From Candidatus Komeilibacteria bacterium CG_4_10_14_0_2_um_filter_37_10 (GTDB lineage Bacteria > Patescibacteriota > Patescibacteriia > UBA1558), in contig PFPO01000049.1 in NCBI GenBank assembly GCA_002793075.1, positions 1 to 20,261 on the forward strand: 20,261 nt of DNA, written 5' to 3'. How positions within the stretch are numbered: the first letter of the stretch is position 1; each line of letters begins with the position of its first letter. This document shows, one piece after another, positions 96 through 20,081 of the stretch. The translations under genes and the position numbers were made by a program. Below the pieces are notes generated by a model. That model was not told where the DNA came from. It saw only the letters and a program-made list of their open reading frames with translations, and searched no databases.

Positions 96-629
96 TTAAT
101 TAACTTGATACTCTTCAAAAATCACATGTCCGTTTTCTTTTTTTGCCATGAATAAACGGATTTTCTTTTTAATGGAGTTTAGATTCAACAATGTTTTGGC
201 TACTTGTTGTAAATCCATCAATTGTGACTTAGTGAGCACTTCTATCAGTGATTGTAAAATGCCACTGGCTTTTTTCTTAATCGCGCGATAGCCAGAGCAA
301 TCCTCATGGTTGATCAATACCAATGTTTCAATGGTATTAAATCTTTCCAGGAGATACTCAATTTGCTCTTTCGTGATCTTGAAATGCTTGGGCAAAGCTG
401 TAACTTCGGATAACGAAGCAATGGAACCAGGGATTACTATAGTAACATATTCACCGGGTGCATAACCGAGGCAACCCTGTTCACAAGAACCTTCAATAAA
501 CATTTGAAAGGCTTTTTGAAAACGCGGATCACTACAATGAATGCAAATGGCTCGCGGTGAAGCTGTTAAATCCAAAGGAAATACTATCTGATCTTTTTGA
601 TCTTTCAGCTCACTTTGAATCTCACTCAT
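96..629 (-). CDS. hypothetical protein carrying beta-class carbonic-anhydrase-like zinc-ligand motifs (C-S-D-P-R ... H-E-D-C-S-G); likely last gene of the nfeD-flotillin transcription unit
   Basis: 177-aa ORF; its start overlaps the flotillin stop by 4 nt (626-629), which suggests translational coupling. Cys32-x-Asp34-x-Arg36 and His108-x2-Cys111-x-Gly resemble the CxDxR / HxxCG signature of beta-carbonic anhydrases, but spacing and total length are atypical. Confidence 0.45.
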   Translation of the reverse strand: MSEIQSELKDQKDQIVFPLDLTASPRAICIHCSDPRFQKAFQMFIEGSCEQGCLGYAPGEYVTIVIPGSIASLSEVTALPKHFKITKEQIEYLLERFNTIETLVLINHEDCSGYRAIKKKASGILQSLIEVLTKSQLMDLQQVAKTLLNLNSIKKKIRLFMAKKENGHVIFEEYQVN

Positions 630-2263
630 GACTTCTCCGCTGGTTGATCGTCGGGCACAGATGTCTTACCAATTAATTTACTGGTAGCTTCTGCATCCAA
701 TCCGATTTTGCTTAACAATGTTGAAAAATCAAGACCCATGGATTTTGCCACGGTGATAAATTTCAACAACATCCCGGGAACTAAATTGGTTAATTGATCA
801 ACTCCCTTACCATTACCGCCAACATCGACGATATTGAGGGAGTCAATATTACCCAGAGGAGCTGCGATAGCCGATAGTGCTTCTTTCATTATTTTAGCTA
901 TGGCATCACCACCGGTTTCAAATAAATGCGGGGCGCGATCCAGTATCATCATTAACTGCGACTTATCGTCCAGCGCTTTCAATGCCTCGGCTAATTTCTG
1001 AGTTGCTTCAGCGTCGGCTTTTTTACCCTCGGCTGCGGCAAGAAGTCTAGCTTTCTCACCTTCGGCTTCAGCTAATAATTTAGCTTTCTCACCTGCGGCT
1101 TGAGCGGTTAGGGTAGCTAGCTTGCGCGAGGCTTCACCTTCACCGATGTTTATTTCTGATTCGCGCTTAGCTAACGCGTCGATTTTTAGAGCTTGCGCTG
1201 CGCCTTCGGCTTCAATCGTTCTCTTGGCTTTCTCACCTTCGGCAACAATTGATACTCGTTGTTTTTCAGCTTCGGCTTCTTTAATAACAGTTGCACCCAG
1301 CTGCTTTTCCATACGAATCGCCTCTTTCTCCTGAACATGTATCTGTGCTTCTTTTTCTGCAGCATCACGTTCAGCTTGTTTAACGCGGAGTGTTTTTTCC
1401 TGCTCAGCGCTAGCGATACCAAAAGCATTTTCTGCCTTTGCTCTTTCAGTATCGGATTGGACTTTGTATTGAGCTTTTTTGATCTCTTTATTGGCGTCAG
1501 CTTCCGCTATCATAGCAGCGTTTTGCGACTGAACAATAGAAGCTTCCTTCTGGGCATCACTTACTTTAATCTGCTGATCACGAGTAGCTTCCGCTACTTT
1601 GATCTCAGCGTCTCTCTTAGCTTCGGCAACCGCCTGTTTACCCAGGGCATCGATGTAACCCTCGTCGTCCTTAACATCTTGAACAACCAAAGTAAGAATC
1701 TGAATACCCAACCGTTTTAATTCTTCCGATGATTCCGCTACCGTTTTTTTGTTGAATTCATCACGTTTACGCAATAATTCATCAATAGAAGAATTACCGA
1801 CAATAGAACGGAGATGTCCCATCATGATATTTTTAACAACAGCTGCGACTTCTGCTGCTGATTTATTGAGAAAATTGGAAGCAGCATTGATCAGATCTTC
1901 TTCGGCAGTAGAGATTTTACAGGTGGCAACGCCACGAATAGTCATCTTAACGTTATCCTTGTTGGGGATAGCGTTCTCTTCAATATTTATCTGAAATACC
2001 GAAGTAGGAAATTCTTTGTAGCTTTCTACGAAGGGAATCAGTACTTTCCCACCGGATAATAATACTTTGAAACCGCGATGCTGTATTTGACCATCAGCAC
2101 CCTTATATGGATAGCTACGACCATAGAAAATACCAGCAAAATCTGGTGGAATTTTCTTGTACCTTGAAGCTATGACACGGAGTGTGGCTAAAAAAGCCAC
2201 AACAATTAAAAGTATTAAAACCGGAACAATCCAATTAGCAAGAGCACCTGATATAGCGTTCAT
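626..2263 (-). CDS. floT: flotillin-like SPFH/band-7 membrane-microdomain protein (FloT/YuaG-like)
   Basis: 545-aa ORF with an N-terminal TM segment and an SPFH-like region. It continues into a long Ala/Glu/Lys-rich coiled-coil with EA-type repeats (AEAEGEKAKLLAEAEGEKARLLAAAEGKKA), as in bacterial flotillins. It lies immediately downstream of an NfeD-like gene, the classic yuaF-floT arrangement. Confidence 0.85.
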   Translation of the reverse strand: MNAISGALANWIVPVLILLIVVAFLATLRVIASRYKKIPPDFAGIFYGRSYPYKGADGQIQHRGFKVLLSGGKVLIPFVESYKEFPTSVFQINIEENAIPNKDNVKMTIRGVATCKISTAEEDLINAASNFLNKSAAEVAAVVKNIMMGHLRSIVGNSSIDELLRKRDEFNKKTVAESSEELKRLGIQILTLVVQDVKDDEGYIDALGKQAVAEAKRDAEIKVAEATRDQQIKVSDAQKEASIVQSQNAAMIAEADANKEIKKAQYKVQSDTERAKAENAFGIASAEQEKTLRVKQAERDAAEKEAQIHVQEKEAIRMEKQLGATVIKEAEAEKQRVSIVAEGEKAKRTIEAEGAAQALKIDALAKRESEINIGEGEASRKLATLTAQAAGEKAKLLAEAEGEKARLLAAAEGKKADAEATQKLAEALKALDDKSQLMMILDRAPHLFETGGDAIAKIMKEALSAIAAPLGNIDSLNIVDVGGNGKGVDQLTNLVPGMLLKFITVAKSMGLDFSTLLSKIGLDAEATSKLIGKTSVPDDQPAEKS

Positions 2264-2297
2264 AAACAGATCCTTTTTTTGATGAGTGAAATATTAT

Positions 2298-2831
2298 TTA
2301 TTGAACAAAAACTGACGAACCAGAGGTTGATACTATTTTAACCTCAGAGCCTTTGGCAATTGGCTTATTATTAATGGACCTGGCAATATAATTCATATAA
2401 CCATTGTCCATATCTACACCGACTTCACCGGGTGCATTAGTATCTATTCCAATTGTAACTATAGCCGTACGGCCAATAGCTGTTGATGTTTTAATATTAC
2501 TGGAAGCTTGTTGCTTATAAATTAATACTAGCAAGCCCCACATAATCAAACCAACAAGAATTCCGGAACCAACACCCCCAAGAGCGCATACTGGATAGCT
2601 ATAATCATAAAATCTGAAAGTGCCGCCGGCACCGCCAAAAACCATGATAAAAGTAGCAATAACTTTACCGGAAAAAATCGATACCGTTGCTTCGTTACCG
2701 GAATGATCATCACCATCGTGATCGTGATCTTGATCAAATGAATGATCATCACCATCGTGATCGTGTCCAAAAATAAATGCGGCCATTAGGTAAAGAAAGC
2801 CTGCCAGCCCTAAAGAAAAAAAGATGTACAT
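2298..2831 (-). CDS. nfeD: NfeD-like (YuaF-like) membrane protein, flotillin partner, with a duplicated His/Asp-rich insert
   Basis: 177-aa ORF with a hydrophobic N-terminus, two further TM segments, and a soluble beta-rich C-terminal domain typical of the NfeD OB-fold. Size matches B. subtilis YuaF. Its position directly upstream of the flotillin gene on the same strand fits an operon. RBS GGAG sits 7 nt before the ATG. Confidence 0.75.
   Translation of the reverse strand: MYIFFSLGLAGFLYLMAAFIFGHDHDGDDHSFDQDHDHDGDDHSGNEATVSIFSGKVIATFIMVFGGAGGTFRFYDYSYPVCALGGVGSGILVGLIMWGLLVLIYKQQASSNIKTSTAIGRTAIVTIGIDTNAPGEVGVDMDNGYMNYIARSINNKPIAKGSEVKIVSTSGSSVFVQ
2702..2765 (-). repeat. 25-bp perfect direct repeat (aatgatcatcaccatcgtgatcgtg) x2 separated by 14 bp inside nfeD, encoding a duplicated HDHDGDDHS motif
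   Basis: Copies at 2702-2726 and 2741-2765 are identical in sequence. Their translation in the NfeD frame gives GHDHDGDDHSFDQDHDHDGDDHS. Confidence 0.85.
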
Positions 2832-3716: not shown

Positions 3717-4815
3717 ACATATTGGAATCATTAAGAGATCCAAATGTATGCAAATAGGGATTAAGTATTATAATTGCTCTGGATTTGGTAGATTATATGA
3801 ATATGCTCATAAGCAAATTCATATGATTACTAAAGAAGCTAAACAACGACTTAAAATTATCCTTTTCTGGCAGAACTGTGGTCTTAGGGCAACTATATCT
3901 GCCTTTGGGGCCAAACAGTCCATTCTCTACAAATGGCGTAAAGTATATAGAGATTCTGGTTGTCAGTTAGCAAGCCTTAATCCTGGCAGTCAGGTCAGAA
4001 AAACAACCAACAAACGAGAAGTTAACCTAGATATTCTCGGCGAGATGAAACGATTAAGATTAGCAGTATGTCCTAATATGGGTAAGGCTAAGATCAAGAA
4101 GTTTCTCGACCCATTCTGTTGTTTAAATAACCTACCCATCTATTCAGAGTCCAAGATAGGTAGAATAATTAAGGAAAAGAAGATTTATCATCATCGACAG
4201 AGGGTCTATCATAATGGAACAATTAAAATCATTAAGAAACAAAAGAAACTAAGAAAACCAAAGGAATTAGTGGTTAATAGCCCAGGTGATTTAATAGAGA
4301 TAGATACTGTTGTTAGGTTTGTCTCTGGTCTAAAAAGATATATTATTACAGCAGTGGATACCTTTGGTCGCCCAGCCTTTGCCTATACTTACAATCGAGC
4401 AGGTGGTGCCAACGCTCGAGACTTCTTCAAAAAGCTAGAAGAAGTGATGCCCTTTAAGATTAAATCAGTGCAAACAGACAATGGTAGTGAGTTCCATCTT
4501 TATTTTAGAAAGTATTTGCAGGAACGAAATATTACTCATTACTATAACTATCCTGACCGATCATATCGTAACGGACACATAGAAAGGTTTAACCGAACAA
4601 TTCAAGAAGAGTTTGTTGATCAGAGTGAATTTCTACTGATCGACCTAAATGTATTTAACTCAAGATTAATAGACTATTTACTATGGTACAATACTAAAAG
4701 ACCACATTGGAGTCTTAATCTAGAATCACCTGTGGATTATTTAATTAAAAATAACTTTATTTCCAATATGTGCTGGACTAATACAGGTTTATCTTTTAAC
4801 TACCTTAAGATATAA
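3717..4815 (+). mobile_element. putative IS element (IS481-like, single DDE transposase ORF); ends uncertain
   Basis: It contains a single HTH + rve-integrase-core transposase ORF. An 11-bp inverted match, ACATATTGGAA at 3717-3727 and its reverse complement TTCCAATATGT at 4761-4771, is a candidate terminal inverted repeat. No clear target-site duplication was seen. Confidence 0.4.
3748..4815 (+). CDS. DDE transposase (rve / retroviral-integrase-core type, IS481-family-like); true start may be the internal Met at 3823
   Basis: 355-aa ORF. The N-terminal basic HTH-like region reads KQRLKIILFWQNCGLRATISAFGAKQSILYKWRKVY. The catalytic core carries D (IEIDTV), D (QTDNGSEF) and E (NGHIERFNRTIQEEF), the DD(35)E pattern with the conserved TDNGSEF and ERFNRT blocks. 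Confidence 0.8.
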   Translation: MQIGIKYYNCSGFGRLYEYAHKQIHMITKEAKQRLKIILFWQNCGLRATISAFGAKQSILYKWRKVYRDSGCQLASLNPGSQVRKTTNKREVNLDILGEMKRLRLAVCPNMGKAKIKKFLDPFCCLNNLPIYSESKIGRIIKEKKIYHHRQRVYHNGTIKIIKKQKKLRKPKELVVNSPGDLIEIDTVVRFVSGLKRYIITAVDTFGRPAFAYTYNRAGGANARDFFKKLEEVMPFKIKSVQTDNGSEFHLYFRKYLQERNITHYYNYPDRSYRNGHIERFNRTIQEEFVDQSEFLLIDLNVFNSRLIDYLLWYNTKRPHWSLNLESPVDYLIKNNFISNMCWTNTGLSFNYLKI

Positions 4816-4839: not shown

Positions 4840-6035
4840 ATGAACAAAAAGAACCAATTAAAAAAAATAGTAATCTTTATTCTACTGTCTTGTGCACTTA
4901 AATTCTTTTTTACCGATCAAATCATCGAGCAAGAGTACAATTCTTTGGTCAAGCTCGGGGCCATCATTATAGTATTTGTTATTGGTATTGGTTTTGTCTT
5001 CCAAAATACCACACATATTATTGAAGAGACGACTGATGTCTTAAAAGACCGAACAAAGTTGGCTGGGGGCTTTCTCCAAGCCTTTGGCACTGCCTTTCCT
5101 GATATGGTACTGGGTATTGTCGCGGCTTTCCTAAGTTTACAGCTTCGTGATCATGATTATTTACGCGCCATTAACCTGGCTATTATCGCTGCCTCCACTA
5201 CTTTTGGCTCTAATATTTATAATATAATTCATGCCACTTGGTGTGTTTATCGTCAAAATGTTGCCGATAAAAAAATCAGATCATTGCTATGTTTCCCGGC
5301 TTGCCGTTTGGTGGCAATTTAACACCCGTCAAGAAACATTCTGTGAAACCAAGCCCCCGAGAACTTGGTCGGGCCATTGATATTTTGACGGTCCTTACTG
5401 TTCTGACAGCAGCTGTGGCCCTGAGCATGGTACTTTTTGGTAGTGTTAGTAATAGACCAGAGATGATCCAGGGCGACCTGTATCAATTGATTAGACCGAT
5501 TGGTATTATTCTCTTTATCTTATGTATCGCCATCCTCTATATTTATCGTCGCGGCGAAAAAGCCGAATCACCAGTAAAAGAAATAGCCGAAGAAGAAAGA
5601 TATTACGCCACCCGATCTAACTTTCGCATCTGGCTGGACCTGGGTTTGGCTGGTATAGCTATTCTCTTTACTGCTGAAAGTATGGTTACCTCAATGGAAG
5701 TATTTTCTGAAATTACTGGCCTTCCTTTTGTCTTAACTGGTATCGCCGCCGGTCTCATTGGCTGTTTTGGCGAAATGATGGTAGTGCACAATTTCACGGT
5801 TCATCCCAAGGGAAGAATTGGTGATGCTATCATGGGTGTGGCCATGGATAATATTGTCACCACGTTAGGCGCTGCTATCGTCGCTATTATGGGTGGTATA
5901 TTTTTGGGAGGTAACTCTTTAATTTTAATCTTTATTATTATTTTGGCAGCTAATACTATTTTGATTCAGCAAATATCTAAGTTCAAAAACAACTTACTAG
6001 CTACCAAGGTAGCTAGTAAAAAAATTGCTGCTTAG
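4840..6035 (+). pseudogene. CaCA-like (Na+/Ca2+ exchanger superfamily-like) polytopic membrane transporter split into two overlapping ORFs (4840-5322 frame 1; 5289-6035 frame 3) by a frameshift at an A7 homopolymer
   Basis: Both ORFs are highly hydrophobic and each carries one alpha-repeat-like motif (GTAFPDMVLGIVAAF; GLIGCFGEMMVV). Frame 3 opens exactly at the TAA embedded in the A7 run at 5269-5275, so a +1 A there would fuse both parts into one ~400-aa protein. This could be a real pseudogene, a phase-variable tract or a homopolymer sequencing error. Confidence 0.45.
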
Positions 6036-8241: not shown

Positions 8242-11200
8242 ATGGAAATGCCAAAAAATTATTCAGCTGGTGACTACGAACAATCGATCTATCAACAATG
8301 GGAAGAGTCCGGTTTTTTCAATCCCGATAATCTAACTTGGGCCAAGAAACCCTTCTCGATTGTCTTGCCGCCGCCAAATGCTACCGGCATACTACACCTG
8401 GGACACGCTTCGATGTTAGCCTACCAAGATGTACTAATTCGTTATCATCGCTTACTGGGCGAGAAAACATTGTGGCTACCAGGAACTGATCACGCCGCTA
8501 TTGCCACCCAAAATGTGGTAGAGAAAAAAATTGCTCAGGAAGAAAATCTAACCAAGGAACAGCTGAGACGTAACGCTTTCTTAGCACGAGTTCGTAACTA
8601 CGTAGCCAATTCGCAAAACACTATTCATAAACAGTTGCGAGCCATGGGATCTTCTTTAGATTGGAGTCGTGAACGCTATACGCTAGACGATGGTTTATCG
8701 CGGGTGGTAACTACTGCCTTTAAAAAAATGTACGACGATGGTTTAATCTGTCGTGGTTATCGTATTGTGAATTGGTGCCCGCGCTGCCAATCAACACTTG
8801 CTGACGATGAAGTGGAGTATAAGATACAAAAAACACACTTATATTACTTACAATACGGCCCGGTGGTAATAGCTACAACTCGTCCAGAAACCAAAATCGG
8901 TGATACGGGACTGGCGGTTAATCCGCACGATCAGCGGTACCAGCACCTAATCGGCCAAACATTAAAATTTTCTCTTGGTGATATAGAGCTATCAGTCAAA
9001 TGCTTTGCCGATGAATCGGTTGATCCGGAATTTGGTACCGGTGCTATAGGTGTCACGCCAGCACATAGTACTATTGACTATGACTGGGCTCAGAAATACG
9101 ATTTAGCGATTGTTAAAATTATTGACGAGCGCGGTAATATGACTAAAGAAGCTGGGGCGTATGCTGATCTATTAGTTACTGAGGCTCGCAAAAAATTCCT
9201 TCTAGCAATTGAACAAGCCGGACAGTTAATAAAAATTGAAAATTATGAAAATAATTTGTCTGTTTGTTATCGTTGTGGCACCGCGATTGAGCCACTGCCT
9301 TCCGAACAATGGTTTGTGGATGTCAATAAAAAAATACCAAAACTCAAAAAATCTTTAAAAGAACTATCGTTAGCAGTGGTGGAGAAAGGGTTGGCTGATG
9401 ACCCTAATAAAAAAATTGTGATTATACCGGAAAATTTTACCAAAGTTTATCTGCATTGGATGACAAACCTACACGACTGGTGTATTTCTCGTCAAATCTG
9501 GTGGGGTCACCGTATCCCCATTTGGTATTGTTTACAATGTGGCAAAATTTCTGCAGATAATGAGCCTCGGAGCAAGTGGTTTCTTGTTCGTCATGGCGAA
9601 ACCGATATGAACAAAGAGAATAGACTGTATTACCAAGATAACGATATTGATATGCCTTTAAATGAACAAGGAATAATGCAAGCGGAGGAATGTGCACAAG
9701 AACTAAAAAAACAAAAAATTGACCTTATTATTACCTCTCATTACTTACGCGCTCAACAAACAGCACAAGTTATTGCCCGGGTAACAGGAGCAAAAATTAT
9801 TCTTGAGGAAAACTTTCGTGAACGTAATACTGGCAATGCTCAGGGCATGACTTCTGCGGAAGTAAAAACAAAATTTCCCAACTTCTATGAATATGCTGAT
9901 AAATCAGCCAATCAGGAAAATTATCAAGAAATGGAAGAAAGAATGTGGGAATCTTTTTCTCAACATTATGCCCAACACAAAGATAAAAACGTGGTTATTG
10001 TCGGTCATGGCGGTGCCTTTCGTTCGCTGATACGAAAAATAAAAAACATTGACCCTGTAGATATCAGAACAAAAATTAACCTGCTATCCAATTCTCAACC
10101 TTTTCAGTTAGACATTCTTCAGCCGTGTTCTGGGTGTCATAGTCATTTTTTTGAACAAGATCCAGATACGCTAGATACTTGGTTTTCCTCAGCTCTTTGG
10201 AGTTTTTCTACTTTAATGAACGGTGAATATCATGGTAGTTGGCAAGAGTGGCTAAAAAATAGTCCTGATTTGCAAAAATATCATCCTCTTAATGTTATGG
10301 AAACAGGCTATGATATTTTATTCTTTTGGGTAGCCCGTATGATTCTGATGACTACTTATCTGATTAATGACATACCATTTCAAACAGTTTATTTACATGG
10401 ATTAATTCGCGACAAACAAGGTCGGAAGATGAGTAAGTCGTTGGGTAACGGCGTAGATCCTATTGTCATGATTGAAAAATATGGCGCTGACGCCTTACGT
10501 TTAGCTATATTAGTAGGCGCTACGCCAGGCAATGACACTAGGCTTTACGATGAAAAAATTGAAGGCTATCGTAATTTTATCAATAAGCTATGGAATATTT
10601 CCCGCTACATTTTTAACAATACAAAATCAATAAATATTATTAAGCAACAACCAAAACCAAAAACTGCGGCCGATCATTGGATTATTAATGAATTAAATTT
10701 GTTAATCACCGCAGTTAGCGACGATCTTAATAGTTATCGCTTTTCTTTAGCTATTGAAAAGCTCTACGAATTTACCTGGTCAAAATTTGCTGATTGGTAT
10801 TTAGAAATTAGTAAAATAGAAAAAAACAAAGAAGATATCTTGCTTTATATTTTACAAACTCTGCTAAAATTATGGCATCCATTCGCGCCTTTTGTTACTG
10901 AAGTATTGTGGCAAAAAATGAGTTCCGAATTAATTATGGTTGAAAAATGGCCAGTTGTTTCGGCACTAACAAAAATTGATCAGAGCTTTCAACAACTACA
11001 AGAAATAATCAATAAAATTCGATCAGCTAAAGCAGAAAATAAAATTGACCAAGTCAAAATTATTGACCTATACTTAGCAGAGCAATTAGACACTACTTCT
11101 TTGCAAATTATCAGCCAATTAGGCAGAGTTAATATTGTGCAACAGGCACTAGATAATTGGTTAACACTACCACTAAGTAATAATCTAATCAAAATTGCCA

Positions 11201-11382
11201 TTGATCGTGATGAGGCTGAACAAATCCACCGATCTAACATCAATCAACTACAAAACAACATTAGTTCGCAACGGGCAAAGCTAGCGAATGAACAATTTAT
11301 TAATAACGCACCATTGGAAATCATCGAGGAAGAAAGAAAAAAATTGACTGAAGCAGAAAAAAAACTAGCTCAGATTTCTTAA
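8242..11382 (+). CDS. valS: valyl-tRNA synthetase with an inserted histidine-phosphatase (PGAM-family) domain
   Basis: 1046-aa ORF with class-I HIGH (PPPNATGILHLGHA) and KMSKS (KMSKSLGN) motifs. It also carries the conserved WCISRQIWWGHRIP and DTLDTWFSS blocks and a C-terminal coiled-coil, all typical of ValRS. About 190 aa inserted between the zinc-knuckle Cys pairs (CLQCG ... CSGCH) carry the histidine-phosphatase motifs LVRHGETDMN, SHYLRAQQTA, ERNTGNAQG and VIVGHGGAFRSL. Confidence 0.95.
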   Translation: MEMPKNYSAGDYEQSIYQQWEESGFFNPDNLTWAKKPFSIVLPPPNATGILHLGHASMLAYQDVLIRYHRLLGEKTLWLPGTDHAAIATQNVVEKKIAQEENLTKEQLRRNAFLARVRNYVANSQNTIHKQLRAMGSSLDWSRERYTLDDGLSRVVTTAFKKMYDDGLICRGYRIVNWCPRCQSTLADDEVEYKIQKTHLYYLQYGPVVIATTRPETKIGDTGLAVNPHDQRYQHLIGQTLKFSLGDIELSVKCFADESVDPEFGTGAIGVTPAHSTIDYDWAQKYDLAIVKIIDERGNMTKEAGAYADLLVTEARKKFLLAIEQAGQLIKIENYENNLSVCYRCGTAIEPLPSEQWFVDVNKKIPKLKKSLKELSLAVVEKGLADDPNKKIVIIPENFTKVYLHWMTNLHDWCISRQIWWGHRIPIWYCLQCGKISADNEPRSKWFLVRHGETDMNKENRLYYQDNDIDMPLNEQGIMQAEECAQELKKQKIDLIITSHYLRAQQTAQVIARVTGAKIILEENFRERNTGNAQGMTSAEVKTKFPNFYEYADKSANQENYQEMEERMWESFSQHYAQHKDKNVVIVGHGGAFRSLIRKIKNIDPVDIRTKINLLSNSQPFQLDILQPCSGCHSHFFEQDPDTLDTWFSSALWSFSTLMNGEYHGSWQEWLKNSPDLQKYHPLNVMETGYDILFFWVARMILMTTYLINDIPFQTVYLHGLIRDKQGRKMSKSLGNGVDPIVMIEKYGADALRLAILVGATPGNDTRLYDEKIEGYRNFINKLWNISRYIFNNTKSINIIKQQPKPKTAADHWIINELNLLITAVSDDLNSYRFSLAIEKLYEFTWSKFADWYLEISKIEKNKEDILLYILQTLLKLWHPFAPFVTEVLWQKMSSELIMVEKWPVVSALTKIDQSFQQLQEIINKIRSAKAENKIDQVKIIDLYLAEQLDTTSLQIISQLGRVNIVQQALDNWLTLPLSNNLIKIAIDRDEAEQIHRSNINQLQNNISSQRAKLANEQFINNAPLEIIEEERKKLTEAEKKLAQIS

Positions 11383-13713: not shown

Positions 13714-13720
13714 CAAGACA

Positions 13721-13752
13721 AAACTGCCAGCAACGCGCTGACAGTTTTTTTT
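13721..13752. terminator. rho-independent terminator between convergent genes (hypothetical pair and copA)
   Basis: aaa ctgccagc aacgc gctgacag ttttttttt forms an imperfect 8-bp stem with one mismatch plus a T8 run on plus. A shorter A-run on the other side may serve copA. Confidence 0.55.
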
Positions 13753-13778: not shown

Positions 13779-16700
13779 TTATTTTAACGGTGTAAAAAAA
13801 CCTTGATCCACAAAATGAAATTGATCAAGTACCGTATTCGTCGCTGGTAGAATGCCAGCAATAATTACTCTCTGACCAAAAAAATTATCAATCGTATCGC
13901 CTGGCTTGCTAATTAATTTGGCATCAATCATCATCTGCGCTTCCAACGATCCGATATAAACAGGCCAATACGAATTACCACCCAACTGAACCTGACTAAA
14001 ACTGGCAATGGATGATTTTAATTGATCTGGTATATTAGTATTTGTTAATAAGTAAAAATTCTTAATAATTTCTTTTTCAGCAATTGATCTATTTAATGCC
14101 GTAGTGGTCAACTTGTTCCAGGTATTACTATTAACCAGATGATAATTATCAATAGCCGTGCCTGTTGTTTCCATAATACCAACTACTTTAACCCTGGCTA
14201 ATCCAAAAAAATTATCTAAAGAATCGCCAGCGCCTTGAATTAGTTTTTCTTTTTTCATCATCGCAGCTTCGCTAGCGCCAATGATCATTTCATCATCACC
14301 CAATGTCAGTGTACCTTCCGCTACTTTAAGCGAGTCAGGTAATTTCTCAACAGCCAGAAATAGCTTCGGATTGCCCTCGGCAAAGTTCATTTTTGCTTGT
14401 CCCTTAGCAATTAAATTATTCAACGACGATGCTGTTTCCCAAGAAACTGCGAGCGCCATACCTTTATTCTCCATGCCAGAACTAAACCGAGCAAATTCCA
14501 AGAATATACCCGTAAAAAGCAAAACCATAACCAATGGCGCGATCAGTGATACGTAGTTACGTTTACCCGGACGGAATAACTTCAACAACAGAGAATTAGA
14601 TACCACTGAGATAGATGATAGGGCCATGGTAAGTCCAGCAAGTTCTGGTTTGAGAATTAATCCAAAAGCTACAAACACTCGAGCTGCTACTGGTATGCCA
14701 ATAACATTATAAAACAAAGCAAAGAACATATTTTGTTTTATCTTGCTCATGGTTTCCCGAGACAACTCAAACGCCGTCACTACGTCATTAAGATCGTCTT
14801 TCATGATCACTACACCGCCAGTTTCCATCGCTACATCAGTACCAGATCCCATAGCAATACCCAAATCGGCTTGCGCTAAAGCCGGCGCATCATTAATGCC
14901 ATCGCCAACCATAGCAACTTTTTTACCAGTTGCTTGTATCTTCTTTACTTCCTTAGCCTTATCTTCTGGTAAAACCTCCGCCAAGACATTAGTAATACCC
15001 ACCTGAGTAGCAATCGCCTGCGCAGTTCTTTCGTTGTCGCCGGTGATCATATAAACTTCAATTCCTAATTTTTGTAACTTAGCCACAGCTTCCCGCGAGG
15101 TATTTTTAACTGTATCGGCAACAGCTACCGCACCAATAATACTTTCACGACTAGCGATAATCATTGCTGTTTTTCCTTGCTCTTCTAGTCTCTCTAATTT
15201 ACGATTGATTTTATCCAACGATAATCCCAAAACGCTAACCATCAAACGCCGATTACCAATATAGTATTTAACCCCCCTGATATCACCTTCTACGCCATGT
15301 CCGGGAATAGCTTTAAAATTTTCTACTTCCTCTAGATCAATATTTTCTTCCTTGGCATAAGCACAAATAGCCTCAGCTAATGGATGCTCGGATAATTTTT
15401 CTAAACTAGCAGCGACGCTGACAATTTCATCTTGATCTGATTGACCAAAATTAAGTACCTCGGTTACCTCTGGTTTGCCTTTGGTGAGCGTACCGGTTTT
15501 ATCAAAGACAACAGCCTTTATCTTACACGCTGCCTCTAGTGGCTCACCACCCTTAATCAAAATACCATATTCCGCTCCCTTGCCAGTGCCCACCATTAAG
15601 GATGTTGGCGTCGCCAAACCAAGAGCACAAGGACAAGCAATCACGATAACAGCCGTGAAGGCCATTAAGGCAAAAGCTAAACTAGCGCCAAGAAAAAAGT
15701 ACCAAACAATAAAAGTAACAATAGCAACTACGATAACGGTTGGTACAAACCAAGCTGAAATCTTATCAGCGAAGCCTTGAATTGGCGCTTTGGATCCCTG
15801 GGCCTCTTCAATTAGACGAATGATTTGTGCTAATGATGTCTCGCTACCTACACGCGTTGCTGTAAATTCAAAACTACCAACCTTATTAACGGTACCAGCA
15901 GCAACCATGTCACCAATATTTTTTTCTACTGGCAATGACTCACCAGTCAACATTGATTCGTCTACTGCTGATGAGCCCTTAACTATTTTACCATCCACTG
16001 GAATTTTTTCTCCTGGCCGAACAACTACAATATCACCATGAACAACCTCATCAATAAGGATATCTGAAACAATACCATTTCGTATCACGCGCGCGGTCTT
16101 TGCCTGTAAGCCCATTAATTTTTTTATGGCTTCAGAAGTTCTACCTTTAGTGCGAATCTCTAGCCACTTACCCAAAACAACGAAGGTGATCAAGAAAGCC
16201 GCCGTCTCAAAATAAAGTTCGGGAATTTTACCGCCCAATCCAATCAATGATCCGGTCTGCACAACATACAAAATATAATTAACGGTACTGTAAAAAAATG
16301 CCGTGGAAGTACCAATGGCAATCAAGGAATCCATATTAAACGTTCTCATCTTCAGTGCTGACCACAGACCGCGATAAAATCCAGCGCCAATAATAAACTG
16401 CACGGGAATAGTAAATAAGAAGGAAATAATGCCAAAATAAGGCGCCAATAATGTAGCGCCTGGTAACCACTGAAAGAAATCTAGCAACATAAAATAAAGC
16501 ATTGGTAAACTAAAAGCCAAACTCCACCAAAACTTCTTTTGATAACCACGTATTTCCGTTTCCCGTTTCCGACTATCATGCTCAGTATCTTTAACATCCA
16601 CTAATTCCGCGCTATAACCAGCTTTTTTGATGGTTTGCACCAAGTCACTGACCTTGGTAGTTGCTTCATTGAAAACTACCAATGCTTTTTCGGCAGCAAA

Positions 16701-17126
16701 ATTAACATTAGCTTGCTGGACGCTAGGCATTTTTTTTAAAGCTCGCTCTATTAATCCTGCGCAAGAGGAGCAATGCATACCAGAGATAGATAAATTAACC
16801 CGTCCATTAGCTTCAGTGGTCGTCTCTAATTTTATTTTCAACGGCTCGCTTGCAGCAGTTTCTTTAACTACTACATCCTCTGACGATGTTGACTGATCAA
16901 CACCAGTCGTTTCATTAATTACAGTGGCTTCATAACCAGCTTTTTTTATAGCTGCGATTACTTGACTATTATTAACTAAGGATTCGTCAATACCTAGACT
17001 ACCACTACCTTCTTGGAAGTTAATTTTAATATTACCTATGCTGGGCAATTCTAAAAGTTCAGCCGTAATGATCTGCTCGCAGGACGAGCAGTGCATGCCA
17101 CCAATTTTTAACTGTAACGTCTTCAT
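13779..17126 (-). CDS. copA: copper-translocating P1B-type ATPase (CopA-like) with two N-terminal HMA domains and an unusual ~270-aa C-terminal extension after an extra TM helix
   Basis: 1115-aa ORF with two MxCxxC HMA domains (GMHCSSCEQ; GMHCSSCAG). The TM helix carries CPC ([12 protein letters not shown]), and the phosphorylation motif DKTGTLT, the hinge GDGINDAP and the TGES-type actuator (LTGESLP) are present. After the normal final helix ([18 protein letters not shown]) comes an extra hydrophobic helix ([24 protein letters not shown]). A soluble C-terminal region then carries two copies of a GD(S/T)(L/I)DNFFG...(Y/F)H(L/F)V(N/D) repeat. Confidence 0.9.
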
Positions 17127-17130
17127 ATAT

Positions 17131-17337
17131 TTATGCTTTAATTACTAAATAATTAGTTCCCCCTAAAATTTGTTTTATTTCTAGCAGATCAATTTCACGC
17201 TCCGCCGTTACGGTTGTTTGGCCACTGGCTAAATAAATCTTTATTTCCTGGACTCCCATTAACTTATTTAATTTAAGCGTGATGAGCTTAACGCAAGCCT
17301 CGCAGGTCATTCCTTGAATAATAAATTTATTAATCAT
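17131..17337 (-). CDS. copZ: CopZ-like heavy-metal-associated (HMA) copper chaperone
   Basis: 68-aa ORF with GMTCEACV (MxCxxC) in a ferredoxin-like HMA fold. It ends 4 bp upstream of copA. Confidence 0.8.
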
Positions 17338-17353: not shown

Positions 17354-19177
17354 TTATTCAACGTTGATTACACCTCGGGGAACGCCCATGGCACAAGTTA
17401 TGGAATATTGACCTTTCTTGGTGGGCGTAAAATCAAGTTCCAAGATGTTACCACTCTGTAAATACTCGGGATTATTATATAAGCCCGGTATCATAATCGT
17501 GCTCATACACCCCTGACCGTCATCCTTAACGTCAATCAAGAATTTAACTGGCATACCAGCTGTGACAGAAAAATTGTTTGGCTGGATATCCTTATTTAAA
17601 GTATAAACGGCTTTGATGATCTGTGCTGGTGTATTAGCTACTGCGTTATTATTCACACTGCCATAATCCGGCTTGGTACTATTGGCGTTAATCGGTGGGC
17701 GAGCTCCACCGCCGCAACCACCACAACCGCCACCACCAAGACCGCAGGACGATCCTTTGGTGGCTGCTTTATTATTGGTAGATGAATTGCTCGCTCCAGA
17801 AATAGGGCCGTCTGTACTTACTACATTAAATGCCCCCCGATACATACCCATACTACAAGAGAAAGGAATTTTACCTTCTTCTTGAGGAGTAAATTCAAAA
17901 ATATTTTCACCGGCAACTAAATTTTCTCTAATACCCAACTTCGGCGCGCTGATACTAGCAGCACAGGAATATGGTTCCGTAACATTAATGATCCACTTAA
18001 CTGGCATATCTTTTCTGATAGTAAAATTGTTTGGTGAATAGCCTGTGTAGCTCTCAGTCATTTTGACTATCTGTACACCATCTTGGATTATCACATTGGG
18101 ATCTTGTGAATTTGTTACTGCGGAATTTTTGTCACCCCCCCAACTAATGCCGACTAAAGCCAGGCCATTAGATATATTGAATAGCGCAAACAAAATTACT
18201 ACTACACCAGCCACCTTAAAAAATTTCCGCGCCGCAGATCCTTTCACTGCCGAAGTTATACCACCGATAGAAAGAAGTCCTGGTGCGGTACCTATGGCAA
18301 ATAATCCCATAATCATCGCCCCCTGGACAAAACTACCGGTGGAGATGGCATATATTTGCATCGCTTGAGTAAATCCACAAGGCAAGAAAAAAGTGAGCGC
18401 GCCAACCATCAGGGAATTCCGATGATTGTATTCGGCGTGATGCCGATCAGTACCAAATAATTTAGCGATACCCTTGGGTAACGTCAATTTCCAAGAATTA
18501 AATTTCGGAAAAATTTCTATCAGTTGCAGACCGACAAATAACATTAAGGCACTGACAATAAAAGTTAAAAAACTTGTTATCGTTGTCGAGAGCTGAAAAA
18601 TTGATCCCAGGGCTCCCAGTAAACCACCGAGAATAACATAACCGCTAATGCGGCCTAAATTAAAAAATAAATGCGGCCTAAATTTTTGACTAGTTGTAGC
18701 TTCGGGATGCTTTTCCACGTGCTTAGCGGAAAGACCAAGTACTAAACCGCCAATCAAAGCCATACAGGAAGAGAAACCAGCTACCAATCCAATCAGCACT
18801 ACCGTACCAAGACTTGAAGGACTACCGCTGGTAGCAAAACCAATGTTAGTTAAGCCAAATAATTTTAAAAAACCATAAGTAATAATAACAATTACTACTG
18901 CGGTAAATAATTCTTTATAATCCTTGGGGTTACGACTAAAAAAACGTGGTTTTTCAGCAACGCCAACTTGATAGCCAGCCGCAACTACTGCTTGTTCTAA
19001 ATCCTGTGCTGCTGGCTTTTGCTGGGTGTAGTATATTTCTGCCACGCCTTTATGATGCGTTACCTCGCTTTTAGTAACGTGTTTGATATGCGAAAATTGT
19101 TCCTCCAACAAAAGTTCACAGGAACGACAATGCATGCCCTTAATTGGTAAGATTATTTTTTGTAATTTATGAGTCAT
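17354..19177 (-). CDS. multidomain membrane protein: N-terminal HMA + DsbD/CcdA-like (DsbD_2-type) 7-TM domain + cupredoxin-like domain + Gly/Cys-rich linker + second cupredoxin-like domain
   Basis: 607-aa ORF with an N-terminal HMA (GMHCRSCE). About 7 predicted TM helices carry conserved Cys in GFSSCMALIGG and FFLPCGFTQ, resembling the two-Cys CcdA/DsbD_2 transmembrane family. Two ~95-aa beta-rich modules with shared motifs (PNNF(T/S)(I/V)..(D/G)MPVK(W/F)(I/L)I(N/D)V ... F(E/D)FTP...G..(P/S)(F/I)(S/T)C(S/A)MG..RG..NV) look cupredoxin-like. Between them lies SSCGLGGGGCGGCGGGARPP. Confidence 0.8.
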   Translation of the reverse strand: MTHKLQKIILPIKGMHCRSCELLLEEQFSHIKHVTKSEVTHHKGVAEIYYTQQKPAAQDLEQAVVAAGYQVGVAEKPRFFSRNPKDYKELFTAVVIVIITYGFLKLFGLTNIGFATSGSPSSLGTVVLIGLVAGFSSCMALIGGLVLGLSAKHVEKHPEATTSQKFRPHLFFNLGRISGYVILGGLLGALGSIFQLSTTITSFLTFIVSALMLFVGLQLIEIFPKFNSWKLTLPKGIAKLFGTDRHHAEYNHRNSLMVGALTFFLPCGFTQAMQIYAISTGSFVQGAMIMGLFAIGTAPGLLSIGGITSAVKGSAARKFFKVAGVVVILFALFNISNGLALVGISWGGDKNSAVTNSQDPNVIIQDGVQIVKMTESYTGYSPNNFTIRKDMPVKWIINVTEPYSCAASISAPKLGIRENLVAGENIFEFTPQEEGKIPFSCSMGMYRGAFNVVSTDGPISGASNSSTNNKAATKGSSCGLGGGGCGGCGGGARPPINANSTKPDYGSVNNNAVANTPAQIIKAVYTLNKDIQPNNFSVTAGMPVKFLIDVKDDGQGCMSTIMIPGLYNNPEYLQSGNILELDFTPTKKGQYSITCAMGVPRGVINVE

Positions 19178-19265: not shown

Positions 19266-19718
19266 TCATTCGCGTTTCGCGATCGTCTCTAAATGGTCAA
19301 TAATTAATAACGGTGGATCATTAATTGATAACAACGAAATTGGTTTAAAAAATTGATCTTTCTCGGTAACTGTCGATAAAAACATAACAACTACTCTTTC
19401 GCCAACTCTTAATTCTTGGGGATTGGTTTGACTTGGTTCATTTTTTTGATAACAACACGGTAATAGATTGTTATTATTTTGCTGCTGCCGAGTAACCGGT
19501 ACTGGCGCTGGAATACTATCGTGTGTCTGATTTGATTCTTGGCAATTATCCATACTGTTATTTGTCGTAACTACATCGTTGGCGGGTTCAGGTAGCGCTT
19601 GGGCTGCTAAAGCAATGCCGGGCAAGACAGCTAGGTGACAAAAAAATATACTCCCACTAAACAAGACTAACAAAGTCGCTAGGGCAATTATTCTTTTGTT
19701 GTTGTATTTCCGGTACAT
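19266..19718 (-). CDS. hypothetical membrane-anchored protein (signal-anchor/TM, Q/N-rich, CC motif) inside the copper operon
   Basis: 150-aa ORF with an N-terminal hydrophobic segment (IIALATLLVLFSGSIFFCHLAVLPGIALAA), then a polar region with QQQNNNNLLPCCYQKNEPSQ. It lies between csoR and the fusion gene on the same strand. Confidence 0.5.
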   Translation of the reverse strand: MYRKYNNKRIIALATLLVLFSGSIFFCHLAVLPGIALAAQALPEPANDVVTTNNSMDNCQESNQTHDSIPAPVPVTRQQQNNNNLLPCCYQKNEPSQTNPQELRVGERVVVMFLSTVTEKDQFFKPISLLSINDPPLLIIDHLETIAKRE

Positions 19719-20056: not shown

Positions 20057-20081
20057 ATACCCACACCTGGGGTAGGGGTAT
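20057..20081. promoter_or_regulatory. candidate CsoR operator: GC-tract pseudo-palindrome ATACCCACACCTGGGGTAGGGGTAT between the divergent csoR genes
   Basis: TACCC ... GGGGTA inverted arms plus a tandem GGGGTA GGGGTA, the only GC-rich palindrome in the AT-rich 82-bp divergent intergenic region. It resembles known CsoR operators, which are G/C tracts flanked by TA and form pseudo-palindromes. A -10-like TATAAT at 20089-20094 would serve the plus-strand gene. Confidence 0.6.

Follow-up and report, generated by a model that had tools for sequence, protein, structure and literature searches.

What could a copper operon gain from a membrane protein that joins a copper-binding domain, a core resembling those of thiol-disulfide transporters and two cupredoxin-like domains in a single polypeptide? 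This question is raised by a 20,261-nucleotide stretch of DNA (contig PFPO01000049.1, positions 1 to 20,261; the whole of it is called the window hereafter) from Candidatus Komeilibacteria bacterium CG_4_10_14_0_2_um_filter_37_10, in which the list of open reading frames (ORFs) places a 607-amino-acid (aa) ORF with an ATG start at 17354..19177 on the minus strand. A first-pass annotation, made from the letters alone, had read this ORF as a fusion of HMA, CcdA/DsbD-like and tandem cupredoxin-like modules at the centre of a CsoR-controlled operon, and had suggested that its product is either a thiol-based Cu(I) relay across the membrane or a reductant conduit that feeds external Cu-binding or Cu-oxidising domains. 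We find that the fusion gene is a conserved structural gene of a cop operon predicted to be repressed by CsoR, and we tentatively prefer the relay over the conduit.

In a Pfam domain search, two of the three modules that had been proposed were recovered and the third fell just short of its threshold. DsbD_2 (PF13386) matched residues 126-332 of the fusion with an E-value of 2e-35 (125.7 bits against a gathering score of 24.9, with positions 2-198 of the 199 in the model covered), and Cupredoxin_1 (PF13473) matched two stretches with an E-value of 3e-14. The HMA model (PF00403) reached 24.1 bits at residues 10-70, which is just under its gathering score of 24.8; two orthologues, P0023 (57% identical to the window protein) and P0080 (53%), scored 50.7 and 36.1 bits with the same model, a phmmer search related the window's own domain to the ATP7B domains in the PDB (E 5e-12), and the beta-alpha-beta-beta-alpha-beta fold with its GMxCxxC loop is present. 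When compared with the other HMA domains of the operon, that of the fusion scored 88 and 71 against the two N-terminal domains of CopA (GMHCSSC) and 37 against CopZ (GMTCEAC), while its top NCBIfam match was MerTP_fusion. The fusion is a member of the HMA, DsbD_2 and CupA-type cupredoxin families only, and in that sense it is a hybrid of known parts.

Hydropathy and an AlphaFold2 model of the fusion (mean predicted local distance difference test score (pLDDT) of 81.5, predicted template modelling score (pTM) of 0.67) agreed on seven transmembrane (TM) helices, located at about residues 90-110, 124-150, 170-195, 200-222, 255-278, 286-310 and 321-345. The successive loops contain 5, 0, 4, 0, 6, 0, 3 and 1 Lys and Arg residues, which sums to 18 on the inner side and 1 on the outer side, and this unambiguous positive-inside pattern predicts a protein with its N-terminus inside, seven TM helices and its C-terminus outside. 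Because of this pattern, the HMA domain would be cytoplasmic and everything past TM7 would be located outside the cell. The DsbD_2 core corresponds to TM2-TM7, and the extra first helix makes the TM count odd, so that a core with both termini outside becomes a protein that starts inside and ends outside. An odd TM count with external C-terminal domains had been postulated from the start, and the alternation of loops carrying 5, 4, 6 and 3 positive residues with loops carrying 0, 0, 0 and 1 bears this out.

The two membrane-embedded cysteines that the first-pass annotation had singled out were also recovered, both as invariant residues located at helix breaks: Cys138 belongs to the first core helix (TM2), which is broken at residues 136-137 of the AlphaFold2 model, and Cys267 to the fourth core helix (TM5), broken at 265-267. 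The first and fourth core helices are also where CcdA and DsbD carry their own cysteines. The relationship of the core to these proteins could be placed through its orthologues: P0023 and P0080 pass the DsbD_TM model (PF02683) over its full length, with 30.5 and 32.6 bits for a gathering score of 27.1, whereas the same model gave no match to the window protein up to E = 10. Since these two orthologues pass DsbD_TM, we consider the core to be a diverged relative of the CcdA/DsbD membrane domain; the CcdA/DsbD-like label is thus upheld by the DsbD_2 match and by the orthologues, with the reservation that the window protein does not itself match PF02683. When the PDB was searched by sequence with a profile of the TM family, no solved structure of CcdA was matched, and BLAST detected no similarity between TM2-4 and TM5-7 of the kind expected from the 3+3 inverted repeat of the DsbD/LysE superfamily.

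The two C-terminal domains are predicted to be CupA-type binuclear Cu(I) domains. In domain 1, the residues C405…C441-S-M443-G-M445 align to the ligands of CupA and are invariant. Domain 2 is a paralogue of domain 1 (37% identity, E 1e-15) whose aligned ligands read C557…C595-A-M597-G-V599, the final Met being absent, and it matches CupA with an E-value of 0.0066. The sequences of both domains are devoid of His, and neither carries the ligand set of a type-1 (blue) copper protein or of a multicopper oxidase (His-Cys-His-Met or His-rich). The lack of His excludes a role of these domains as redox centres of the type-1 or CuA type and as oxidase modules. The cupredoxin-like part of the original description is therefore kept, in the more precise form of two CupA-type domains with Cys…CxMxM ligands, while its Cu-oxidising alternative and any blue copper reading are disfavoured.

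Residue conservation followed the same modules. In the 119 full-length homologues closest to the window protein (50-69% identity), the residues that were invariant or nearly so included Cys17 and Cys20 of the HMA domain, the membrane Cys138 and Cys267, and Cys405, Cys441, Met443, Met445, Cys557, Cys595 and Met597 of the cupredoxin domains, as well as four membrane Met (Met139, Met212, Met273 and Met290) and four His of the cytoplasmic loops (His153, His157, His169 and His252). In a more diverse set of TM domains, extending down to 36% identity, Cys138, Cys267, Arg176, Thr270 and Gln274 remained invariant and Met212, Met290 and Gln271 nearly so. The two cysteines were still invariant in 150 representatives reaching down to about 27% identity.

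How unusual is such a fusion? A word-indexed search returned more than 4000 homologues, and nearly all of the best 120 combine HMA, DsbD_2 and Cupredoxin_1, while an exhaustive HMMER search with the TM region alone retrieved 4161 cluster representatives at E <= 1e-3 and 370 at E <= 1e-30. The best 150 representatives, some of which are fragments, comprise 94 proteins with the order HMA-TM-Cup, 17 HMA-TM-Cup-Cup, 18 TM-Cup, 13 HMA-TM and 7 TM only. The HMA domain is thus retained in about 85% of them, with the TM core and a CupA-like domain behind it in nearly all cases, and the CxMxM motif is found in 101 of their 148 Cup domains. Given the 94 one-Cup against the 17 two-Cup forms, a protein of about 450 aa with a single cupredoxin domain is the commonest form and the window encodes the two-domain variant. 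In GTDB, with one genome per species, relatives are encoded in at least 587 stretches; the best 80 of these are almost all from Patescibacteria by record title, and for the few whose titles name other phyla, binning or labelling may be the cause. Automatic annotation calls these proteins 'sulfite exporter TauE/SafE family protein', 'heavy metal transport/detoxification protein' or 'urease accessory protein UreH domain-containing protein'. A search with a 36%-identical representative and the cluster members of ten high-GC-looking representatives yielded metagenomic sequences only and no member from a cultured organism, and we found in the literature no functional study of PF13386 proteins or of the HMA-DsbD_2-cupredoxin architecture. 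This is a large, widespread and uncharacterised family, mostly patescibacterial (candidate phyla radiation), which is catalogued but mis-named, and its combination of modules is without a characterised counterpart. What the first-pass annotation had called unusual is therefore not rare, with thousands of members and the same operon context across the Patescibacteria, although it was right that no characterised system with this architecture is known.

The operon context was examined in the window and in the best 80 related loci. In the window, csoR, a gene for a small protein with a Cys-Cys motif, the fusion gene, copZ and copA follow one another on one strand with gaps of 47, 88, 16 and 4 bp. 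The candidate CsoR-type operator in front of csoR is the single match to its pattern, for 0.01 expected by chance. These short gaps, the operator upstream and the terminator-like stem after copA (Table) agree with the single CsoR-controlled copper operon that had been proposed. The neighbourhood is also conserved: 55 of the 66 related loci with enough downstream sequence have copA on the same strand as the fusion gene and no more than 1.5 kb downstream of it, usually with copZ in between, and csoR lies upstream of the fusion gene in 28 of 70. The strict pattern TACCC-N(4-20)-GGGTA occurred at 19 sites in 1 Mb, 14 of which fell within the 11% of that sequence that precedes the fusion gene, for the most part 25-50 bp ahead of csoR.

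Besides the fusion gene, two parts of the operon are both unusual and conserved. The 150-aa Cys-Cys protein encoded directly upstream belongs to a very divergent family (about 17% identity) that occupies the same position in at least 15 related loci, and whose members combine a Cys-Cys (or CxxxC) motif with an anchor or signal at the N-terminus and with PPxxD(I/L)LxSVxK(K/R)E at the C-terminus; this family had no Pfam match. The positive N-terminus of the protein suggests that most of it is located outside, and it probably serves the system as an extracytoplasmic partner. In six related loci (L039, L044, L063, L073, L078 and L079), the slot directly upstream of the fusion gene is filled instead by an unrelated family of small membrane proteins that have about two TM helices, the motif CPF and, at the C-terminus, GILHPK(I/V)Y.

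The CopA of the window carries, after its canonical last helix and a ninth TM helix, an extension of about 235 aa made of two repeats, for which a Pfam scan found no family. The extension is whole in about 11 related CopAs and reduced to one repeat in about 9 more, and most others end with the ninth helix alone. Since both CopA and the fusion would project domains outside, this would fit an extracytoplasmic hand-off of Cu(I), a link between the two proteins that we only infer. Finally, genes for DsbA-like, membrane-anchored thioredoxin-fold proteins (CPFC or CPYC) are found in or near the operon, within 7 kb, in 16 of the 80 related loci. They are contiguous with it in 7 (L012, L057, L022, L017, L040, L023 and L052) of the 76 loci in which the fusion ORF could be parsed, and no thioredoxin-fold domain was found in the fusion protein or in the window's operon. 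Their recurrence may indicate that extracytoplasmic thiol-redox chemistry is connected with this copper system.

As to what the fusion does, the reading that we favour, with a confidence that stops slightly short of even, is a thiolate ligand-exchange relay in which Cu(I) would travel from the HMA domain via the membrane Cys pair to the external CupA-like sites. Copper stress would derepress the operon, and Cu(I) from CopZ or from low-molecular-weight thiols would be loaded onto the CxxC of the HMA domain, from which it would be passed to the Cys138/Cys267 pair by thiolate ligand exchange, helped by Met212, Met290, Gln271 and Gln274. An alternating-access movement of the CcdA type would then expose the pair to the outer face, where Cu(I) would be taken over by the membrane-proximal CupA-like domain and, in the long forms, would reach the second domain along the flexible Cys/Gly linker; at these external domains it might be buffered, oxidised or released. 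A disulfide-moving machine would in this way have been re-used for two-coordinate Cu(I): Cu(I) transfer between Cys pairs is the same kind of chemical step as thiol-disulfide exchange, so that the CcdA movement could carry Cu(I). The relay would operate beside CopA, perhaps in physical contact with it, and it might be coupled to protons, through thiols that become protonated at the outer face, or else to a thiol-disulfide cycle, which is pure speculation.

We favour the relay because the HMA domain is integral to the protein, conserved in the family and closer to the N-terminal domains of CopA than to CopZ, and because the membrane core keeps soft ligands (two Cys and two Met) together with the His of the cytoplasmic loops. 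The copper context, made of the CsoR fingerprint, the operator and the copZ-copA neighbours, was also counted in its favour. To our knowledge, every characterised fused HMA domain (in P1B-ATPases, MerA and MerT-MerP fusions) is attached to a metal-handling module. The LysE superfamily, which includes DsbD, is otherwise rich in heavy-metal exporters (PMC4608589). If the relay is taken one step further, the DsbD_2 core may be a true Cu(I) translocase, and as such a third kind of bacterial copper exporter besides P1B-ATPases and RND/Cus systems, a proposal that seems to us somewhat less likely than not. Thiol protonation or a thiol-disulfide cycle might drive such a translocase, and docking with the MacB-like external domain of CopA might occur.

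Several considerations weigh against a relay of Cu(I). The N-terminal HMA domains of P1B-ATPases are largely regulatory, so that the HMA domain of the fusion need not be on a transport path. At high external copper, a relay by passive thiol exchange would tend to carry Cu(I) inward, so that efflux would require energy coupling or an external sink, neither of which is apparent from the sequence. A role in series with CopA would explain the near-obligatory synteny with copZ and copA no less well than a parallel efflux would, the DsbA-like genes in or near the operon point to thiol-redox chemistry, and the characterised classes of the DsbD superfamily (DsbD, CcdA and ScsB) all move electrons, not metals (PMC3322552). 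Considerations of this kind make a reductant conduit the main rival, and the fusion would then be a fourth class of the DsbD superfamily: the membrane Cys pair would shuttle electrons outward, from thioredoxin or from the HMA CxxC, to the Cys of the CupA-like domains, the Cys-rich linker, the small Cys-Cys protein and/or DsbA-like partners, and would thereby keep external thiols reduced for the capture of Cu(I) expelled by CopA and repair copper-catalysed mis-oxidation, while the HMA domain would act as a Cu(I)-sensing regulatory domain. The TM core is indeed homologous to the CcdA/DsbD membrane domain and has its Cys at the same positions as CcdA and DsbD, Cys-based Cu(I) sites outside the cell require a reductant, the tight synteny with copA suggests action in series, 16 of the 80 loci have DsbA-like genes within or close to the operon, and the energy source would be straightforward (NADPH via thioredoxin). 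However, we know of no fused HMA domain on a module that does not itself touch metal, and the conserved membrane Met and cytoplasmic-loop His would be left unexplained. The window's operon also offers no thioredoxin-fold acceptor, such a gene being contiguous in only 7 of the 76 loci, and the window protein falls below PF02683 while the TM profile matches no CcdA in the PDB. The known relatives of the core are nonetheless all electron transporters, with ScsB linked to copper tolerance (PMC3322552), and a conduit would resemble ScsB/ScsC and, in its function, also the surface Cu(I) lipoprotein CopL (PMC11672702). On balance we regard the conduit as unlikely, if still well worth reckoning with.

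Less probable are the readings that reverse the flux, abolish it or replace copper by another substrate. An inward relay of Cu(I) or another thiophilic metal, of the MerP/MerT type, would lead from the CupA-like domains over the Cys pair to the HMA domain and CopZ, either for a controlled hand-over to CopA or for the supply of cuproenzymes. Metal-binding domains on both faces of a Cys-lined path do resemble the mercury uptake relay, MerTP_fusion is the top NCBIfam match of the HMA domain, and passive thiol exchange would run downhill into the cell at high external copper; but the gene sits with an exporter in an operon predicted to be CsoR-repressed and induced by excess copper, where import would be futile or harmful, and the window holds no merA or cuproenzyme gene, which makes this reading improbable. 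About as improbable, in our view, is a scaffold or chaperone that transports nothing and that, with Cu(I)-binding domains tethered on both faces, would buffer copper and dock CopZ and CopA, its membrane Cys being structural or binding a static metal. Membrane-tethered Cu(I) binders alone can confer resistance, as do CupA (PMC7558416) and CopL (PMC11672702), and the external MacB-like domain of CopA could dock such a partner. However, mid-membrane Cys at helix breaks that are invariant in 150 representatives down to about 27% identity do not fit a scaffold, and a conserved six-TM core is hard to explain as an anchor when CupA manages with a single TM helix. We finally give almost no credence to a transporter of sulfite or organosulfonates (TauE/SafE) or of nickel (UreH-like), or to a persulfide response of the CstR type, with copper being incidental. 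These possibilities come from the database names TauE/SafE and UreH and from the fact that the CsoR family includes the non-copper sensors CstR and RcnR; against them, DsbD_2 and not TauE was the only Pfam family to match the TM region up to E = 10, the regulator carries a Cu(I) C-H-C fingerprint with RicR as its best match, CopZ and a Cu(I)-type P1B-ATPase are encoded in the neighbourhood, and Cu(I) ligand sets are present in the fused domains. The sulfite exporter and persulfide readings were rejected on account of the missing TauE match and the RicR-like C-H-C regulator.

The Cu(I) relay would share features with several known systems without coinciding with any of them. CupA of Streptococcus pneumoniae (PDB 4f2e and 2mry) is a protein of about 120 aa held by one N-terminal anchor helix on the cytoplasmic side, which feeds a CopA that has a matching cupredoxin-like N-terminal domain (4f2f); it is under the control of CopY and has been reported from a few streptococci only. 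In the fusion, by contrast, the CupA-type domain is C-terminal to seven TM helices, predicted to be outside and duplicated, the hosts are Patescibacteria and the regulator is CsoR; in addition, the CopA of the window has two HMA domains and no Cupredoxin_1 match in Pfam, so that the defining context of CupA is absent. With CcdA, DsbD and ScsB, the fusion shares a homologous six-TM core whose termini are both outside and whose Cys are located at breaks in the first and fourth core helices, and both ScsB and DsbD have historically been linked to copper tolerance (PMC3322552, PMC4608589). Unlike these proteins, it has no thioredoxin-fold or Ig-like redox domains and carries instead a predicted Cu(I)-binding module on each face. 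Like MerP/MerT and the MerTP fusion, it combines an HMA domain with membrane Cys, and the Mer logic, a thiophilic metal passed by ligand exchange between Cys pairs, is that of the relay; yet the membrane parts are not homologous, and the Mer HMA domain is outside with a flux inward to MerA, whereas that of the fusion would be inside and in a context of efflux or detoxification. CopL of Staphylococcus aureus, which is needed for high copper resistance (PMC11672702), is likewise an extracytoplasmic, membrane-tethered Cu(I) binder, as is predicted for the fusion, encoded with a copper exporter in a bacterium without an outer membrane, but its fold is unrelated and it has a lipoprotein anchor only, without a transmembrane Cys core or a cytoplasmic domain. 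The COG2836 proteins (HMA + DsbD_2 + DUF2318), which were placed by bioinformatics only in an inferred CsoR meta-regulon of gut Firmicutes and were treated by the authors as possible chaperones (PMC4938975), also have HMA fused to DsbD_2 and a predicted CsoR control, and differ by having DUF2318 at the C-terminus where the fusion has a CupA-like cupredoxin.

Table. Coordinates in the window of the fusion gene, its modules and the other elements of the copper operon
Feature	Position	Strand	Details and evidence
Fusion gene	17354..19177	-	607 aa: HMA, extra TM, six-TM DsbD_2 core, two CupA-like cupredoxin domains; ORF, Pfam, homologues, AlphaFold2
HMA domain, cytoplasmic (predicted), aa 5-75, GMHCRSC	18953..19165	-	Cys17 and Cys20 99% conserved
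Extra N-terminal TM helix, aa 88-110	18848..18916	-	Hydropathy, positive-inside count; helix 84-106 in AlphaFold2 model
Six-TM DsbD_2 core, aa 120-345	18143..18820	-	Pfam PF13386 E 3e-36, conservation, helix breaks
Cys138 codon	18764..18766	-	Invariant, at break in TM2
Cys267 codon	18377..18379	-	Invariant, at break in TM5
CupA-like cupredoxin domain 1, extracytoplasmic (predicted), aa 360-455	17813..18100	-	Cys405…Cys441-x-Met443-x-Met445
Disordered Gly/Cys-rich linker, aa 456-515	17633..17812	-	Conservation; pLDDT below 50
Linker motif C478-x6-C485-x2-C488	17714..17746	-	84-92% conserved in two-domain forms
CupA-like cupredoxin domain 2, extracytoplasmic (predicted), aa 516-607	17357..17632	-	Cys557…Cys595-x-Met597-x-Val599
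CsoR-family Cu(I)-sensing repressor (predicted), 90 aa	19766..20038	-	Pfam PF02583 E 7e-14; NCBIfam best RicR; Cys32/His57/Cys61
CsoR-type operator (candidate), ATACCC-N13-GGGTAT	20057..20081	.	GC-rich inverted repeat, 19 bp upstream of csoR ATG
150-aa operon partner, LLPCC Cys-Cys motif, PP…(K/R)RE at the C-terminus	19266..19718	-	Homologues at same position in related loci
CopZ-type Cu(I) chaperone, 68 aa, GMTCEAC	17131..17337	-	Pfam, NCBIfam
CopA P1B-type Cu(I) ATPase, 1115 aa, two HMA N-terminal domains	13779..17126	-	Pfam, NCBIfam
CopA ninth TM and ~235-aa MacB/LolC-like extracytoplasmic C-terminal domain	13782..14561	-	
Intrinsic-terminator-like 13-bp stem closing the operon 3' of copA	13720..13748	-	Sequence

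Outside the copper operon, the window contains a valyl-tRNA synthetase gene (8242..11382, plus strand, 1046 aa) whose product has a histidine-phosphatase domain (His_Phos_1, phosphoglycerate-mutase-like, RHGETD) inserted in the middle of the catalytic domain; the insert is flanked by two Cys-x-x-Cys knuckles, and the precomputed Pfam annotation of an identical gene places PF00300 between two tRNA-synt_1 matches. Two overlapping ORFs in different frames of the plus strand (4840..5322 and 5289..6035) together resemble one membrane protein of the Na+/Ca2+-exchanger type, with a weak Na_Ca_ex match in the first of them only, and a frameshifted gene or an assembly error may explain the pair. A gene for a 355-aa integrase (transposase) of the DDE/rve type (3748..4815, plus strand) points to an insertion sequence in the window. 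The minus strand at 626..2831 encodes a pair made of a flotillin/SPFH protein of 545 aa, in which a long coiled region is rich in Ala, Glu and Lys, and an NfeD-like membrane protein, the N-terminus of which is a His/Asp-rich stretch, HDHDGDDHSFDQDHDHDGDDHSG, that is possibly a metal-binding tail.

Copper efflux in bacteria without an outer membrane is commonly credited to CopZ and CopA alone, and CupA-type chaperones are commonly seen as a streptococcal and cytoplasmic peculiarity. Almost every patescibacterial cop operon that was examined carries an extra, strongly conserved membrane protein, and its retention in very small genomes argues for an important role. The widespread 'sulfite exporter TauE/SafE' mis-annotation of this family is hereby corrected. 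If its core moves electrons, the family would be a fourth class of the DsbD superfamily, dedicated to a reduced extracellular trap for Cu(I). Should the core move Cu(I) instead, copper transporters would gain a categorically new class, in which an electron-transfer scaffold has been re-used for metal transfer, and were the core a true translocase, the CupA fold would work on both faces of the membrane and Patescibacteria would have a dedicated extracytoplasmic Cu(I) hand-off.

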